64,000 bases of DNA from Acutalibacteraceae bacterium (lineage in GTDB: Bacteria; Bacillota; Clostridia; Oscillospirales; Acutalibacteraceae). A program made the translations under genes and the position numbers. The stretch covers positions 5,975 to 69,974 of the forward strand of contig JAZOLU010000008.1 of assembly GCA_045653425.1 (NCBI GenBank), given 5' to 3'. The number at the start of each line of letters is the position of its first letter. Position 1 is the first letter of the stretch. The notes below the pieces were generated by a model. The model made no database searches. It had not been told where the DNA came from and worked only from the letters and a program-made list of their open reading frames with translations. Shown here piece by piece: positions 1,817-60,684 of this stretch.

Positions 1817-3085
1817 TTATTCCTCCACAATATACGCTTTTACCTGTTCCAAAATGCGAGTGCCGAGTGTTACCGTCATTCGCAACCCGTCTGCTACGTA
1901 TTCCTCCGATTCCACCGCGCCCTCACGTCGGCAAACACCCGCCAAAGCACCTTTGTCAAAGGGAAGAAGCAAGTGAACCCGCCGTCGGTCCGGCGGCAGA
2001 GCACGGGCGATTTGCTCCAACAAACGGTCAATTCCCGCGCCCGTGGCGGCACTGATACACAGCACCGTACCGTTTTGCGGTTCCACGGGAGGAAGTTCAT
2101 AAGGACGGTCACATTTATTAAACACGGTGAGTATCGGTCGGTCGCCGCAACCCAGTTGTGTTAACAATTCGCGCGTTACGGCTAAATGTTCCGCGGCATC
2201 CGGGCTGGAGATGTCACACAAATTCAGCAGAACATCCGCCCCGGCGGCCTCGCCCAGCGTGGAGCGAAAAGCGTTTACCAAATGATGAGGCAAACGGCGG
2301 AGCAAGCCGACCGTGTCAATTAGCAATACCGTGCGGCCATCCGGCAATTTCAGCGCGCGGGCGGTGGTATCCAGTGTGGCAAACAATTTGTCCTCGGCCA
2401 GCACACCGGCATCCGTCAATCGGTTCATCAGCGTGGATTTTCCCGCGTTGGTGTAACCCACGATTGCCACCGTTTGAACGTTGTCTTTGCGGCGGCGTTC
2501 ACGGCGCAACAAGCGTTGCTGTTCCACAGCGGCCAACTGCTGGCGTAGAGCTTGAATACGCCGACGAATGTGCCGTCGGTCGCTTTCCAATTTGGTTTCG
2601 CCGGGGCCGCGTGTGCCGATACCGCCGCCCAGCCGCGATAGTGCCACGCCTTGCCCCGCCAGCCGCGGTAAGAGGTATTGCAATTGTGCCAATTCCACCT
2701 GCAAGCGTCCTTCGGCAGAACGCGCACGCGCGGCGAAAATATCCAAAATCAGCATGGTGCGGTCCACCACGCGGCAGGGGAGTCGGTCCTCCAAATTGCG
2801 TTGTTGTGTGGCGGTGAGTTCGCGGTCAAAAATGACCAAGTCCGCCTCGGCGTTTTCCGCCAGCAGGGCCAGTTCCTCCAATCGACCACCGCCCAAGCAG
2901 GTGGCCTTATCGGGCGATTCGCGCTTTTGTACCATTCTCCCCAGCACTTGCGCACCGGCGGTAGCCGCTAAATCTTCCAATTCATCCAGCGAAACTTCCA
3001 CGTCAAATTCGCCGGTGTCTATGGATACCAAAAAAGCGGTTTCCGGTTTAGTATCCGACGTTTCCACGGATAATTGTTCGGTCAT
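1817..3085 (-). CDS. hflX: GTPase HflX
   Basis: HflX N-terminal domain followed by G-motifs GYTNAGKST, DTVG and NKCD. RBS GGGAGGTGAG lies upstream. Confidence 0.93.
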   Translation of the reverse strand: MTEQLSVETSDTKPETAFLVSIDTGEFDVEVSLDELEDLAATAGAQVLGRMVQKRESPDKATCLGGGRLEELALLAENAEADLVIFDRELTATQQRNLEDRLPCRVVDRTMLILDIFAARARSAEGRLQVELAQLQYLLPRLAGQGVALSRLGGGIGTRGPGETKLESDRRHIRRRIQALRQQLAAVEQQRLLRRERRRKDNVQTVAIVGYTNAGKSTLMNRLTDAGVLAEDKLFATLDTTARALKLPDGRTVLLIDTVGLLRRLPHHLVNAFRSTLGEAAGADVLLNLCDISSPDAAEHLAVTRELLTQLGCGDRPILTVFNKCDRPYELPPVEPQNGTVLCISAATGAGIDRLLEQIARALPPDRRRVHLLLPFDKGALAGVCRREGAVESEEYVADGLRMTVTLGTRILEQVKAYIVEE

Positions 3086-58885: not shown

Positions 58886-59092
58886 CTGCTTTGTGTAGGC
58901 CCCGCTCTGCCGTAATGTCCTCCGGTTAACCTGCTACTAACGAAGCAGGTGGGTGCCGTCCCACCGGGTTCACGCTCCCTTCGTCCCGCCACGGCGGGGA
59001 GGTCTGCAATCTGCCGGCGGAGCACAGCTCCCGTAATCACAGTGTAGTAGGGTTAAAAGAGGATGGTCCGCGCACAGAGCAGGGGGTACGGC
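58886..59092 (-). ncRNA. Candidate structured ncRNA or 3'UTR element of unknown class, downstream of DUF1292
   Basis: GC-rich non-coding gap between convergent genes. About 28 bp of long-range pairing joins 58900-58939 to 59045-59085. This encloses three local hairpins (58948-58965, 58985-58998, 59019-59031). The strand was chosen from the terminator U-tract and is not certain. Confidence 0.4.
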
Positions 59093-59395
59093 TTACGGTT
59101 CCAGTTCTTCTACTTCGTACAGTTCCGACAAGCGTTCCTCAAAAATTTGAGCAATTTCCTCAAACTCGTCATCATCCTCAATGGGAAGAAGCAGGTCTTC
59201 GCCGTTTTCTTCTTTTACGGTTAAAATCACCAATTCACCGTCGTCGTTTACCAGGTCGGCGGGGTTGTCATACACCGGTACCAAGGCGACGTAACGGCCG
59301 TCGTCGGTTTCAATCGCATCCAGAATTTCAAACTGGTGTTGATTGCCTTCGTCGTCTACCACTGTTACCAAATCGTTTCCGTATTCCTCAGACAT
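59093..59395 (-). CDS. DUF1292 family protein
   Basis: Acidic protein of about 100 aa. ...VTVVDDEGNQHQFEILDAIETDDGRYVALVP...DGELVILTV... matches the DUF1292 (YrzB-like) pattern. The start is placed downstream of the mapped promoter. Confidence 0.8.
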   Translation of the reverse strand: MSEEYGNDLVTVVDDEGNQHQFEILDAIETDDGRYVALVPVYDNPADLVNDDGELVILTVKEENGEDLLLPIEDDDEFEEIAQIFEERLSELYEVEELEP

Positions 59396-59438
59396 TTTCA
59401 TTCTCCGTTCTTTCATTACTTTGAATTCCTGTAATTTA

Positions 59439-59467
59439 ATATTACCTTGTTTTTGCATTTTCGTCAA
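59439..59467 (-). promoter_or_regulatory. SigA-type promoter for the DUF1292 gene
   Basis: Minus strand: TTGACG (59467-59462), a 17-nt spacer, then TAATAT (59444-59439). Confidence 0.55.
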
Positions 59468-59535
59468 GCCAAAACTTGGCGAATTGTGTCGCTGTCAAAA
59501 CCAATAAAAAATATTAACTTTTTAACAAAAAACTA

Positions 59536-59564
59536 TTGACAATACACAAAGGGTGTGGTATAGT
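59536..59564 (+). promoter_or_regulatory. Near-consensus SigA promoter with extended -10 and an UP-like A/T tract
   Basis: TTGACA (59536-59541), a 17-nt spacer, then TGgTATAGT (-10 at 59559-59564). About 45 nt of A/T-rich sequence lies directly upstream of the -35 element. Confidence 0.7.
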
Positions 59565-59612
59565 ATAGATGACAAAAGGAAAGAGAGAAAATGACGAGAA
59601 CCGAAAGAAAGA

Positions 59613-59795
59613 GGTGAGTCCCGTGAACTAAGCACCGGAACCCACAAAATGAAGTAAAGGTGAGTCCGATGGTTTGTTAACGAGATGTATTTTCCAAAAA
59701 ATTATACAGCCTATCGCAAAGAAAGGGTAAGGTGAGTCCCGTGGGTCAAGAGGTAGAGCGTACTCTACGAAATTAAAGAAAAGGTGAGTCCCATG
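59613..59795 (+). repeat. Four dispersed direct repeats GGTGAGTCC(C/G)(G/A)TG, each preceded by a purine tract
   Basis: Copies at 59613-59625, 59659-59671, 59731-59743 and 59783-59795, with spacings of 46, 72 and 52 nt. Each ends in GTG or ATG and opens a mini-ORF: 59623-59631 (MN), 59669-59680 (MVC), 59741-59776 (MGQEVERTLRN) and 59793-59810 (MHLNV). Confidence 0.85.
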
Positions 59796-59860
59796 CACTT
59801 AAACGTTTAGTAACCCTTTTTGTAGACTGTGAACCAAATATTAAAGAAAGAGAGTTAACC

Positions 59861-59898
59861 CCGGAGGTTTGTGTAACGCAGACCTCCGGTTCTCTTAT
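59861..59898 (+). terminator. Intrinsic terminator/attenuator upstream of the TSUP genes
   Basis: An 8-bp GC-rich stem ccggaggt/acctccgg (59861-59868/59882-59889) with a 13-nt loop and a TTCTCTTAT tail. Confidence 0.6.
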
Positions 59899-59950
59899 GG
59901 TATAAAAACGCCCTCACACCACACACTAAGAGAAGAAATGGGGTGAAGGC

Positions 59951-60310
59951 GTGAAAACCGGCCGAAAATATCTTATTACAGGTGCGTTGGCGGGTGCTGC
60001 CAACGGTTTGTTTGGTTCCGGCGGGGGATTGTTTTTGGTGCCTCTGCTCACCCGCTGGACAGGGATGGAGCAAAAACGTGCATTTGCTACTTCGGTTGCC
60101 ATTGTTTTTTTAATGTCTCCCGTATCGTTGGTGGTGTTTTGGCTGAACGGCGGAATGGATTGGAACGGCGTGTGGCCGTATTTGGTGGGTGGCGCCGCGG
60201 GAGGGCTGCTTTCCGGCTTTTTGTTCCGTAAAGCATCGGCCACCCTGCTACGTCGTTTGTTTGGTGCTTTGCTGTTATATGGCGGCGTGCGGGCCGTGCT
60301 GTTATTATGA
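59951..60310 (+). CDS. Half-size TSUP (TauE/SafE, DUF81) membrane protein, subunit 1
   Basis: 119 aa with about 4 TM segments and the GxxxGLFGSGGGLFLVP motif typical of DUF81 repeats. GTG start preceded by GGGGTGAAGG. Confidence 0.8.
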   Translation: MKTGRKYLITGALAGAANGLFGSGGGLFLVPLLTRWTGMEQKRAFATSVAIVFLMSPVSLVVFWLNGGMDWNGVWPYLVGGAAGGLLSGFLFRKASATLLRRLFGALLLYGGVRAVLLL

Positions 60311-60684
60311 AAGTAGCCATTGGTATTCTTGCCGGCTTGCTCACGGGCATTCTCAGCGGGTTTGGTGTGGGCGGCGGTTCCTTGCTCATTTTGTATTTAA
60401 CCGCGTTTGCCGGGGTGAACCAGTATACGGCGGGTGGCATAAACCTACTGTATTTTTTGTGCTGTGCACCAACCGCATTGATTTCCCATATTCGAGAAAA
60501 ACGGGTGGTGTGGCCGGCAATTTGGTGGTGTTCCGCGGCGGGGGCGCTCACTTCTGCCGCCGCGGCGTGGGCGGCATCCGCTATGGATACCGACCTGTTG
60601 CGCCGCTTGTTCGGCATTTTGCTCATTGCGGTGGGGTTGCGCGAGATATTTTGCAAAAGCCAAAAAAAGAACCGCACTGAATAA
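60307..60684 (+). CDS. Half-size TSUP (TauE/SafE, DUF81) membrane protein, subunit 2
   Basis: 125 aa with about 4 TM segments and the GILSGFGVGGGSLLILYL motif. Its ATG overlaps the upstream stop (ATGA). Confidence 0.8.
   Translation: MKVAIGILAGLLTGILSGFGVGGGSLLILYLTAFAGVNQYTAGGINLLYFLCCAPTALISHIREKRVVWPAIWWCSAAGALTSAAAAWAASAMDTDLLRRLFGILLIAVGLREIFCKSQKKNRTE

Follow-up and report, generated by a model that had tools for sequence, protein, structure and literature searches.

The transcription unit

We analysed a stretch of 64,000 nucleotides (nt) from an Acutalibacteraceae bacterium (GenBank assembly GCA_045653425.1, contig JAZOLU010000008.1, positions 5,975 to 69,974 of the forward strand), and this whole stretch is called the window throughout. 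The subject of this work is the segment 59536-59898 (+), which lies between a divergent gene of the DUF1292 family, followed by a 6S RNA gene, and two half-size genes of the TauE/TSUP family. It is well supported that this segment is a self-contained gene for an RNA of about 330 nt that encodes no protein of ordinary size. The predicted transcript is bounded by three parts, namely a promoter, four modules in the form of minute translation units and an intrinsic terminator (Table 1). A preliminary description of this DNA had proposed the promoter, a 13-mer in four copies and the mini open reading frames (ORFs) MN, MVC, MGQEVERTLRN and MHLNV, and all of these stand exactly where it had placed them.

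The promoter scores 11 of 12 with an extended -10 element, and the position of its -10 hexamer puts the probable transcription start at about 59570 (+/-2 nt). TTGACA and T(G)GTAnAGT are invariant or near-invariant across three syntenic loci from metagenome-assembled genomes (MAGs; L001-L003), and a like promoter (TTGACA plus a -10 hexamer) is located 5' of the RNA in L014, L027, L074, L083, L102, L112, L125 and L127. The AAAGGAAAG of the 5' leader, which resembles a Shine-Dalgarno (SD) sequence, lies about 5-15 nt from the presumed 5' end, with no start codon at SD spacing. The leader pattern GAUGAC.AAAGGAAAGAC..AACGAGA is kept in 10/10 close relatives and also in L125. Concerning the terminator, the hairpin at 59861-59889 followed by TTCTCTTAT is present as first described, although its stem has 13 pairs, with mismatches and with G-C in eight of them, and not 8 bp. 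Its U-tract is interrupted in the window, while those of the relatives are strong.

The claim that no ORF here exceeds 11 codons is not strictly true if the AUG of GAUGAC is transcribed, since a 20-codon ORF (MTKGKRENDENRKKEVSPVN and a stop, 59569-59631, +) opens at this conserved AUG, at the presumed transcription start, and runs in frame into the GUG AAC UAA of module 1. This ORF is not conserved. From the same AUG, L001 and L002 have a 14-codon ORF ending on the UGA inside module 1, and L003 meets a stop after four codons. Three further features of the preliminary description appear to be coincidences. The ORF encoding MTRTERKR has no AUG in the relatives, while the proposed fifth, degenerate copy at 59840-59862 and the repeat-like look of the TSUP initiation region give no score with a module profile and are not conserved as modules. 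At the place equivalent to 59840-59857 the relatives keep only a loose purine tract (GAGAAAA).

Table 1. Features of the module RNA locus (window coordinates)
Feature	Position	Strand	Description
6S RNA gene	58895..59088	-	Rfam RF00013, 64.1 bits; 5 nt downstream of the DUF1292 stop
DUF1292 gene	59093..59398	-	Pfam PF06949, E = 2e-20; divergent neighbour
A/T-rich UP-element-like tract	59500..59535	+	Read from the sequence; A/T-rich in relatives too; putative function
Sigma-70/sigma-A-type promoter	59536..59564	+	TTGACA 59536-59541, 17-nt spacer, TGgTATAGT 59556-59564
5' leader	59568..59602	+	GAUGACAAAAGGAAAGAGAGAAAAUGACGAGAACC; includes the start-less SD-like AAAGGAAAG
Module 1	59603..59631	+	Purines GAAAGAAAGA; GGUGAGUCC 59613-59621; C; GUG AAC UAA 59623-59631 (MN, stop)
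Module 2	59649..59680	+	GAAGUAAA; GGUGAGUCC 59659-59667; G; AUG GUU UGU UAA 59669-59680 (MVC, stop)
Module 3	59718..59776	+	AAAGAAAGGGUAA; GGUGAGUCC 59731-59739; C; 11-codon GUG..UAA ORF 59741-59776 (MGQEVERTLRN, stop)
Module 4	59772..59810	+	AUUAAAGAAAA; GGUGAGUCC 59783-59791; C; AUG CAC UUA AAC GUU UAG 59793-59810 (MHLNV, stop)
Purine-rich tract ahead of terminator	59840..59857	+	Not a module by profile score
Intrinsic terminator	59861..59898	+	13-pair hairpin 59861-59889, tail UUCUCUUAU
TSUP promoter-like element	59900..59928	+	GTATA, N17, CACACTA; assigned to TSUP, not to the RNA
Two overlapping half-size TauE/TSUP genes	59951-60310, 60307-60684	+	Downstream of the RNA

The four modules

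The 13-mer GGTGAGTCC(C/G)(G/A)TG occurs exactly four times, at 59613, 59659, 59731 and 59783, always on the + strand, and its core can be written as AGGTGAGTCC-N-(A/G)TG in all four copies. No further match was found in the 64-kb window with one mismatch allowed (shuffled sequences give 0.24), and exact GTGAGTCC is likewise confined to the four copies. A profile hidden Markov model built only from the modules of other genomes recovers the same four sites with E-values of 2e-6 to 3e-4, the next match having E = 7. The copies follow each other at 46, 72 and 52 nt and have 13-26 nt in common.

The ORFs opened by the modules differ in how they are kept. In module 1, GTGAGTCCCGTGAACTAA is retained in 9/10 relatives. 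Module 2 reads MA, MV, MAY or MAL before its stop in most relatives, and L074 has the longer MVQDSRLQ. The ORF of module 3, which contains the hairpin GUAGAG-CGUA-CUCUAC (59753-59768), keeps a length of 10-11 codons and an MG(Q) start in 9/10 relatives, and the distant L057 has MGQSEEPQ... Finally, AGAAAAGGTGAGTCCCATG of module 4 is invariant in L001-L003, and relatives read MR, MK or MY followed by a stop.

Conservation and structure

L001-L003 were reached through TSUP homologues, and L014, L027, L074, L083, L102 and L112 were added by a genome-wide pattern scan. The comparison with relatives suggested by the preliminary description thus covers nine syntenic loci, all of which present the same layout of DUF1292, then promoter, RNA and terminator, then TSUP. 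Conserved among close relatives are the promoter, the 5' leader, module 1 (GUGAGUCCCGUGAACUAA), module 3 with its 10-11-codon MG(Q) ORF, module 4 (AGAAAAGGUGAGUCCCAUG) and the terminator. The sequence between modules, the total length (240-366 nt) and the copy number vary, with only three copies in L003.

The RNA is largely unstructured by prediction, and its minimum free energy z-scores are modest (-2.65 for the + strand and -1.7 for the - strand). In an RNAalifold analysis of 10 relatives, compensatory changes were found in the terminator helix, where 7/11 pairs show double changes. Outside the terminator a single pair has two double changes, and the other helices are invariant or changed on one side only; the leader:module-1 and module-3:module-4 pairings are invariant and therefore uninformative. 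No conserved alternative pairing with the 5' arm of the terminator, as an antiterminator would need, was detected in this alignment.

Three DUF1292 homologues (L125-L127) were chosen without reference to the motif. In two of them, L125 and L127, a strong promoter and a terminator enclose an RNA of 860-950 nt that carries GGUGAGUCC modules, the unit being divergent from DUF1292-6S.

Database searches did not match the RNA with any described family. Rfam 15 at the gathering threshold gave only the 6S RNA and one transfer RNA (tRNA) in the window, both elsewhere. For 59400-60000 with E up to 10 it returned nothing above noise (24 bits at best, the cutoff being 53), and across 22 related loci only 6S RNA and tRNA, none of them over the module RNAs. 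The earlier statement that this is not a known riboswitch or leader class accordingly holds against Rfam 15. Comparison by blastn with phage and plasmid collections gave no match to the RNA. A literature search with the literal motif returned unrelated eukaryotic papers only, and one on DUF1292 returned passing mentions with nothing on function.

A family of module RNAs in Oscillospirales

A pattern scan for two nearby copies in 185,579 species genomes led to at least 119 loci, and the module counts given here are drawn from among the matches listed. These include about 45 Oscillospirales records, from Ruminococcus (including R. bromii and R. callidus), Acutalibacteraceae and Oscillospiraceae, and most of the high-GC matches listed are coding repeats. 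It is well supported that the window RNA is a member of an Oscillospirales RNA family with lengths of 240-1100 nt, whose members usually lie divergently beside a DUF1292-6S RNA operon. Each RNA is bounded by a promoter and a terminator, lacks a long ORF and carries two to eight modules in the relatives, as against four in the window. Several of these RNAs cannot be aligned with that of the window. The 9-mer is kept in Acutalibacteraceae, Ruminococcus and Oscillospiraceae MAGs alike. It is also well supported that the minicistron module is, promoter and terminator aside, the one building block common to the whole family.

The grammar of the module consists of a purine tract, GGUGA(G)UCC, any nucleotide, AUG or GUG, zero to two sense codons (sometimes about 10) and a stop. 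At position +8 of 109 unique modules the codon is ATG in 89, GTG in 19, TTG in one and CTG in none. An in-frame stop follows after zero, one or two sense codons in 3, 54 and 24 modules, respectively, that is in 81/109 (74%), while in the two control frames a stop falls within two sense codons in 11/109 and 7/109 (6-10%). The stops are UAA (58), UGA (14) and UAG (10), and the second codon is diverse. Because the DNA pattern fixed only NNTG, this frame-specific stop is not an artefact of the pattern. To judge from these frames, what is selected for is an ORF that closes almost immediately.

At least 34 of the at least 119 loci listed have two or more modules with a start and up to three codons, and 33 of these 34 are Clostridia-type records; none of the about 70 non-clostridial matches listed has two or more modules with a start and a short ORF. 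Among 123 modules, only a single one stands at the head of a long ORF and seven open ORFs of 21-36 aa, and GTGAGT is present in 1/146 ordinary gene starts of the same loci. Together with the grammar, these counts mark the module as a special element resembling an initiation site and reserved for these RNAs. They also bear out the proposal that selection acts on RNA-level modules similar to ribosome-binding sites, conserved across genera in their 9-mer, and not on ordinary gene starts.

Some members of the family show additional features. In Ruminococcus bromii (L016, 3470-4235, +) an RNA of about 750 nt runs from promoter to terminator, contains no long ORF and matches nothing in Rfam. It looks structured in its 5' half, which is followed by two to three GGUGAGUCC mini-ORF modules and a start-less AGGAGUGAGUCC copy. 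Similar RNAs were found in L008, L028, L043, L061, L095 and L118. Since the L016 type does not adjoin DUF1292, genomes may carry more than one module RNA. In AT-rich lineages (L017 4968-5020, L075 1215-1265 and equivalents in L021, L107 and L109) the RNA opens with an ORF of 11-12 codons, reading MKETPPAHEAKF, MKTEAPPRKVS, MNEVPPESYPK or MKEDTPPAQNQK before the stop, with Pro-Pro codons that vary synonymously. This ORF may be a proline-stalling leader peptide, dependent on elongation factor P, and is without an equivalent in the window. The long forms, of 900-1100 nt, open with an ORF of 24-36 aa, M(Y/H)S(D/E)(S/T)(D/E)xQ, which starts MYDEEPQ in L114. They close with a six-codon ORF (MITPFR, MTEPFF or MFEPYY) behind a canonical AAGGAGGA SD, the stop codon of which abuts the 5' arm of the terminator (L055 4990-5060 and L127 1105-1170, both on the reverse complement, and L114 3690-3760). 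Lastly, a deltaproteobacterial MAG (L098, reverse complement, 2000-2300) has a 43-nt tandem repeat of five to six units, in which a hairpin GACCCCUACUAUAGGGGUC precedes GAAAGGUGAGUCCAUUGAC. It is the only non-clostridial match listed with a purine tract, the 9-mer and a start-like codon, and may be a coincidence or an unrelated repeat.

Predicted pairing with the 16S 3' tail

Duplex energies were computed against the 3' tail of 16S ribosomal RNA, GGCUGGAUCACCUCCUUUCUA (...GGAUCACCUCCUUUCU), the canonical sequence being assumed for these organisms; extended SDs at the ordinary gene starts of the loci are too few for the tail to be read from them. In the predicted pairing GGUGA faces UCACC and UCC faces GGA, with the intervening G bulged, and the upstream purines add pairs. 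On this assumed tail the duplexes of modules 1-4 reach -19.3, -13.8, -20.3 and -14.8 kcal/mol. The median of 103 modules is -14.6 kcal/mol against -11.6 for a control that is biased toward strong sites, as it takes the best start of each long ORF (n = 223; p = 3e-15). UCC contributes about 3.5 kcal/mol of the predicted duplex. The earlier term super Shine-Dalgarno fits these energies, given the canonical tail. In S. aureus, also a member of Bacillota, cryo-electron microscopy has described an SD helix that extends toward the start codon into this region of the 16S and tolerates an unpaired nucleotide (PMC13009471).

A 16S tail with GGACUCACC in place of GGAUCACC would alone account for the bulged G. 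A metagenome scan for a bulge-less tandem module (GGTGATCC...) gave three matches, all unrelated, a negative that is weak as there was no positive control in the same database. The matches comprise a CRISPR (clustered regularly interspaced short palindromic repeat) array with the repeat GTCCTTCCCGCACACGCGGGGGTGATCC (L129, 850-1900) and, in L128 and L130, a 32-nt satellite-like tandem repeat on GC-rich contigs of eukaryotic appearance; neither has a relation to the module RNA.

Genomic neighbourhood

DUF1292 is adjacent and divergent in the 10 close relatives and in L017, L020, L034, L057, L058, L075, L080, L091, L114, L125 and L127, and lies about 1 kb from the RNA in L055 and L065. Its promoter (TTGACG, 17 nt, TAATAT at 59467-59439) is conserved too. 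On the DUF1292 strand, after a gap of a few nt to about 340 nt, that gene is followed by a 6S match at the gathering score in L002, L017, L020, L034, L057, L058, L075 and L125, while the match of L127 (40.4 bits) falls just under this score. Since the 6S gene of the window begins 5 nt past the DUF1292 stop on the same strand, co-transcription followed by processing is suggested.

On the other side, the RNA and the TSUP genes have the same orientation and the terminator lies 52 nt upstream of the TSUP start codon. The split TSUP consists of two ORFs of 119 and 125 aa overlapping by 4 nt (ATGA). Their order is permuted, as the first corresponds to the C-terminal half of Pfam TauE (129-236) and the second to the N-terminal half (2-111). 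For the first half, a length of about 119 aa recurs in more than 100 homologues. The interval between terminator and TSUP is unconserved save for G[CT]ATA-N17/18-CA[CT]ACTA, exact in 7/10 family members (the window and six relatives; shuffles give 0.05 per 64 kb). The same element precedes a TSUP match, on the TSUP strand, in L034, where TSUP does not adjoin the RNA. At 59900-59928 it looks like TSUP's own promoter. It resembles what we take to be the forespore sigma-G/sigma-F consensus and is possibly of a sporulation type. A second copy (1807-1835, -) lies at the 3' end of a 422-aa ORF (1817-3085, -) and just upstream of an unannotated 60-aa ORF (1601-1783, -) for which neither Pfam nor NCBIfam gives a match.

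Only in the closest clade is the RNA followed by TSUP. L034 and L057 have TSUP on the other side, past 6S; other genes or none follow the RNA in L017, L020, L058, L075, L125 and L127, and the two loci of a TSUP homologue annotated as Agathobaculum desmolans (L004 and L005) have no such RNA. On these genomic arrangements the RNA does not appear to control the downstream TSUP genes.

Proposed function and comparison with known systems

We tentatively propose that the RNA is a multivalent ribosome-binding RNA made of tandem minigenes and acting in trans, a reading to which we give a probability of about 0.45. Each module would be a translation initiation site of very high affinity. Pairing of GGUGA and UCC with the 5' part of the 16S 3' tail (GGAUCACC) would bring the SD helix almost to the start codon, and the upstream purines would add pairs to CCUCCUUUCU. 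A captured 30S or 70S may start translation, would be aborted within one to three codons and, still tethered through the SD helix, could rebind. The transcript would then be a platform able to carry four ribosomes in the window and as many as about eight in relatives, and would, in trans, buffer initiating ribosomes or act as a decoy for them. This RNA may in addition be shielded from decay by ribosome loading together with the start-less SD-like leader; in B. subtilis initiating ribosomes at a strong SD are reported to block RNase J1 (PMC5737220). The preliminary description had offered three roles, and that of an independent abundant small RNA or 30S decoy fits the comparative data best.

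A bolder form of this proposal, which we consider unlikely, makes the RNA a 6S counterpart for the ribosome. Encoded next to the 6S gene and abundant, it would dock 30S or 70S through its modules on a harmless track of one to two codons, either parking initiating ribosomes (e.g., at entry into stationary phase or sporulation) or test-running new 30S subunits for a mature 16S 3' end. 6S RNA, 480 nt away in the window, is itself a decoy, a dedicated non-coding transcript that mimics the normal ligand of RNA polymerase, and shares the locus; the RNA described here is probably abundant as well, and its presumed ligand would be the ribosome or 30S. Multi-site sponges of the CsrB type likewise reiterate a ligand mimic. 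As in such sponges and decoys, the motif copies are reiterated here within a dedicated non-coding transcript.

Two-codon minigenes are known from the bar region of phage lambda, and modules 1 and 2 of the window show this bar-type layout of SD, start, one to two sense codons and stop. The same unit is found in the axe-txe minigene of Enterococcus (PMC8708949). In these systems the effects are reported to arise from ribosome engagement and peptidyl-tRNA drop-off and not from the peptide. Such minigenes, as far as is known, are single and sit inside phage or operon transcripts, whereas ours form arrays of three to eight in a dedicated, conserved and terminator-ended RNA, with an extended SD and spacer of 9 nt that is near-invariant across genera. 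Tiny ORFs and start-stops identified by start-site profiling (10.1101/520783; PMC13009471) are alike in their immediate or near-immediate stop, and three modules of relatives are literal AUG-UAA start-stops. The profiled ones are reported as scattered, diverse in sequence and placed within mRNAs, while the modules are repeated, conserved and make up most of the conserved part of their transcript.

The leader AAAGGAAAG, with no start codon, resembles the STAB-SD of cryIIIA, a ribosome-binding 5' stabiliser. The hbs stabiliser of Bacillus is reported to work similarly, a strong SD binding 30S or initiating ribosomes and protecting from RNase J1 without a need for productive translation (PMC5737220). 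Those Bacillus stabilisers are reported to serve a downstream coding gene, whereas our RNA has no conserved downstream cargo and bears the elements repeatedly over its whole length, together with start and stop codons. Concerning the extended SD of S. aureus, mRNA located 3' of the core SD pairs with 16S located 5' of CCUCC (the A1543/U1544 region), and a strong extended SD accompanies non-canonical start codons (PMC13009471). There two extra pairs are involved and the genes are real; in the present family the predicted helix reaches the h45 base (GGA) and mRNA position -2, holds an invariant bulged G and heads mini-ORFs only.

Alternative explanations

Several observations weigh against a ribosome-binding function. 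Deletion of the invariant G (-5) would make the predicted pairing stronger (-18.4 kcal/mol), so something beyond maximal SD pairing seems to be selected, and pairing up to -2 may, for steric reasons, not allow the start codon to be placed in the P site. Folding predictions give the modules no greater single-strandedness than their flanks and make them slightly more paired than the rest of the RNA, with a P(unpaired) of 0.38 against 0.46. Nineteen copies of the form AGGAG-UGAGUCC keep the core without AUG, GUG or UUG at the usual position. They may be complementary to the 16S tail in another register, and the start-less copies of Ruminococcus open the frame AUC GAA ACN NNN GCG AAR GAA UGA, the synonymous changes of which hint at a non-canonical start. 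Even so, the proposal leaves the invariant bulged G and the start-less copies unexplained. The locus L126, whose DUF1292 is 72% identical, has no RNA at that position. Some peptides (MGQ.., MYS(D/E).. and MKETPP..) show hints of conservation, and the module statistics count homologous copies, which are not independent events.

The bulged G, the start-less copies and the predicted accessibility would agree with a sponge or decoy, similar to CsrB, for a protein or a C/U-rich small RNA that recognises GGUGAGUCC, with start and stop codons secondary (e.g., safeguards against translation). The 9-mer is invariant across genera including the very G that weakens pairing, a bulge-less tandem version was not found in metagenomes (with no positive control), and several copies within one dedicated transcript suit a sponge. 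We nevertheless regard this as doubtful. The hierarchy of start codons and the frame-specific immediate stops can hardly be explained unless ribosomes are involved, no candidate partner is known, and the motif is nearly absent from the real genes that such a regulator would target (1/123 modules and 1/146 gene starts). Furthermore, both upstream variants (AAAGG- and AGGAG-) would complement the 16S tail, each in its own register.

A polycistronic mRNA for micro-peptides is, in our view, improbable. Its products would be the MGQ.. peptide of 10-11 aa, MYS(D/E)xDxQ.. of 24-37 aa and MKETPPA.. of 11-12 aa, the ORFs of one to two codons being decayed duplicates of initiation sites. The steady length and MG(Q) start of the module-3 ORF (9/10) and its recurrence in L057 agree with such coding, as do the M(Y/H)S(D/E)(S/T)(D/E)xQ common to the first-module ORFs of L055, L125 and L127, the synonymous variation of Pro-Pro codons in the leader ORFs of L017, L021, L075, L107 and L109, and that of Thr codons in the Ruminococcus copies. 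Yet 74% of the module ORFs have at most two sense codons, from which no functional peptide is possible, and it is these that are conserved and repeated. In other respects the MGQ peptide is highly variable, no longer ORF is common to all lineages, the window RNA lacks the MYS and PP ORFs, and nucleotide invariance sits in the untranslated 9-mer.

We hold it very improbable that the RNA is a translation-coupled attenuator or stress sensor, in which ribosome occupancy of the mini-ORFs (e.g., under antibiotic or tRNA stress) would set terminator read-through into TSUP. Leader-peptide attenuators such as those of erm and cat also place short ORFs and a terminator upstream of the regulated gene, as is seen upstream of TSUP, and co-transcription with TSUP is here an assumption. 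The shared orientation, the 52-nt distance and the interrupted U-tract of the window agree with read-through, no sigma-70-type promoter was found between RNA and TSUP in the window, and the six-codon ORF of the long relatives ends exactly at the 5' arm of the terminator. Tiny upstream ORFs with a strong SD ahead of an intrinsic terminator that sense ribosome-targeting antibiotics are of a known kind, as reported for toiL (PMC12121999). The difference from such systems lies in the lack of an antiterminator alternative and of a conserved regulated gene, and in the promoter-like element that the downstream gene has of its own. The linkage to TSUP is not stable, being confined to the closest clade and missing in the Agathobaculum loci. 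The interval is unconserved save for an element that also precedes TSUP in L034, and the relatives' U-tracts are strong, with no conserved antiterminator helix. Synteny and the promoter-like element thus led us to reject the RNA as a leader or attenuator of TSUP, and this role, which the preliminary description had considered for the split TSUP, is not supported by these data.

A type III antitoxin array (ToxI-like) was rejected because of the irregular period, the mere 13-26 nt shared by the copies and the downstream genes, which are TauE/TSUP half-transporters. DNA-level operator repeats are unlikely, as all copies lie on the strand of promoter and terminator and obey a start-stop grammar, and the likeness of GGU..GAGUCC to a tRNA T-arm or T-box and of AAG/GUGAGU to a eukaryotic 5' splice site was dropped, there being no supporting structure or context.

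Implications

The RNA family is real and conserved and apparently undescribed, with a building block of a known kind in an unusual architecture. What appears to be new is the use of minigene arrays as a dedicated RNA family, with a near-invariant extended SD and spacer and a fixed association with DUF1292-6S. Its carriers are Oscillospirales of human and animal guts, including Ruminococcus bromii and relatives. The searchable motif GGUGAGUCC-N-AUG-(N3)1-2-stop marks unannotated RNAs of 240-1100 nt in many MAGs, and the annotation of the locus can be corrected, as TSUP apparently has its own promoter and 6S lies on the DUF1292 strand directly downstream. Should the ribosome-binding interpretation be wrong, these loci would still encode a conserved RNA, absent from Rfam, with an unusual repeated motif.

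If the proposed function is true, it would make testable the reach of the SD helix toward the start codon, the role of a bulged nucleotide and the fate of ribosomes on ORFs that end before SD release, and the decoy principle known from 6S RNA and CsrB would reach to the translation machinery. Full-text searching of the literature for RNAs that act as ribosome sponges or decoys gave no example from bacteria. If confirmed, a counterpart of 6S RNA for the ribosome would be a bacterial ribosome-sponge RNA, a class so far undescribed. If the modules do dock ribosomes, the gut Oscillospirales would possess a natural RNA selected to engage ribosomes and not to be decoded.

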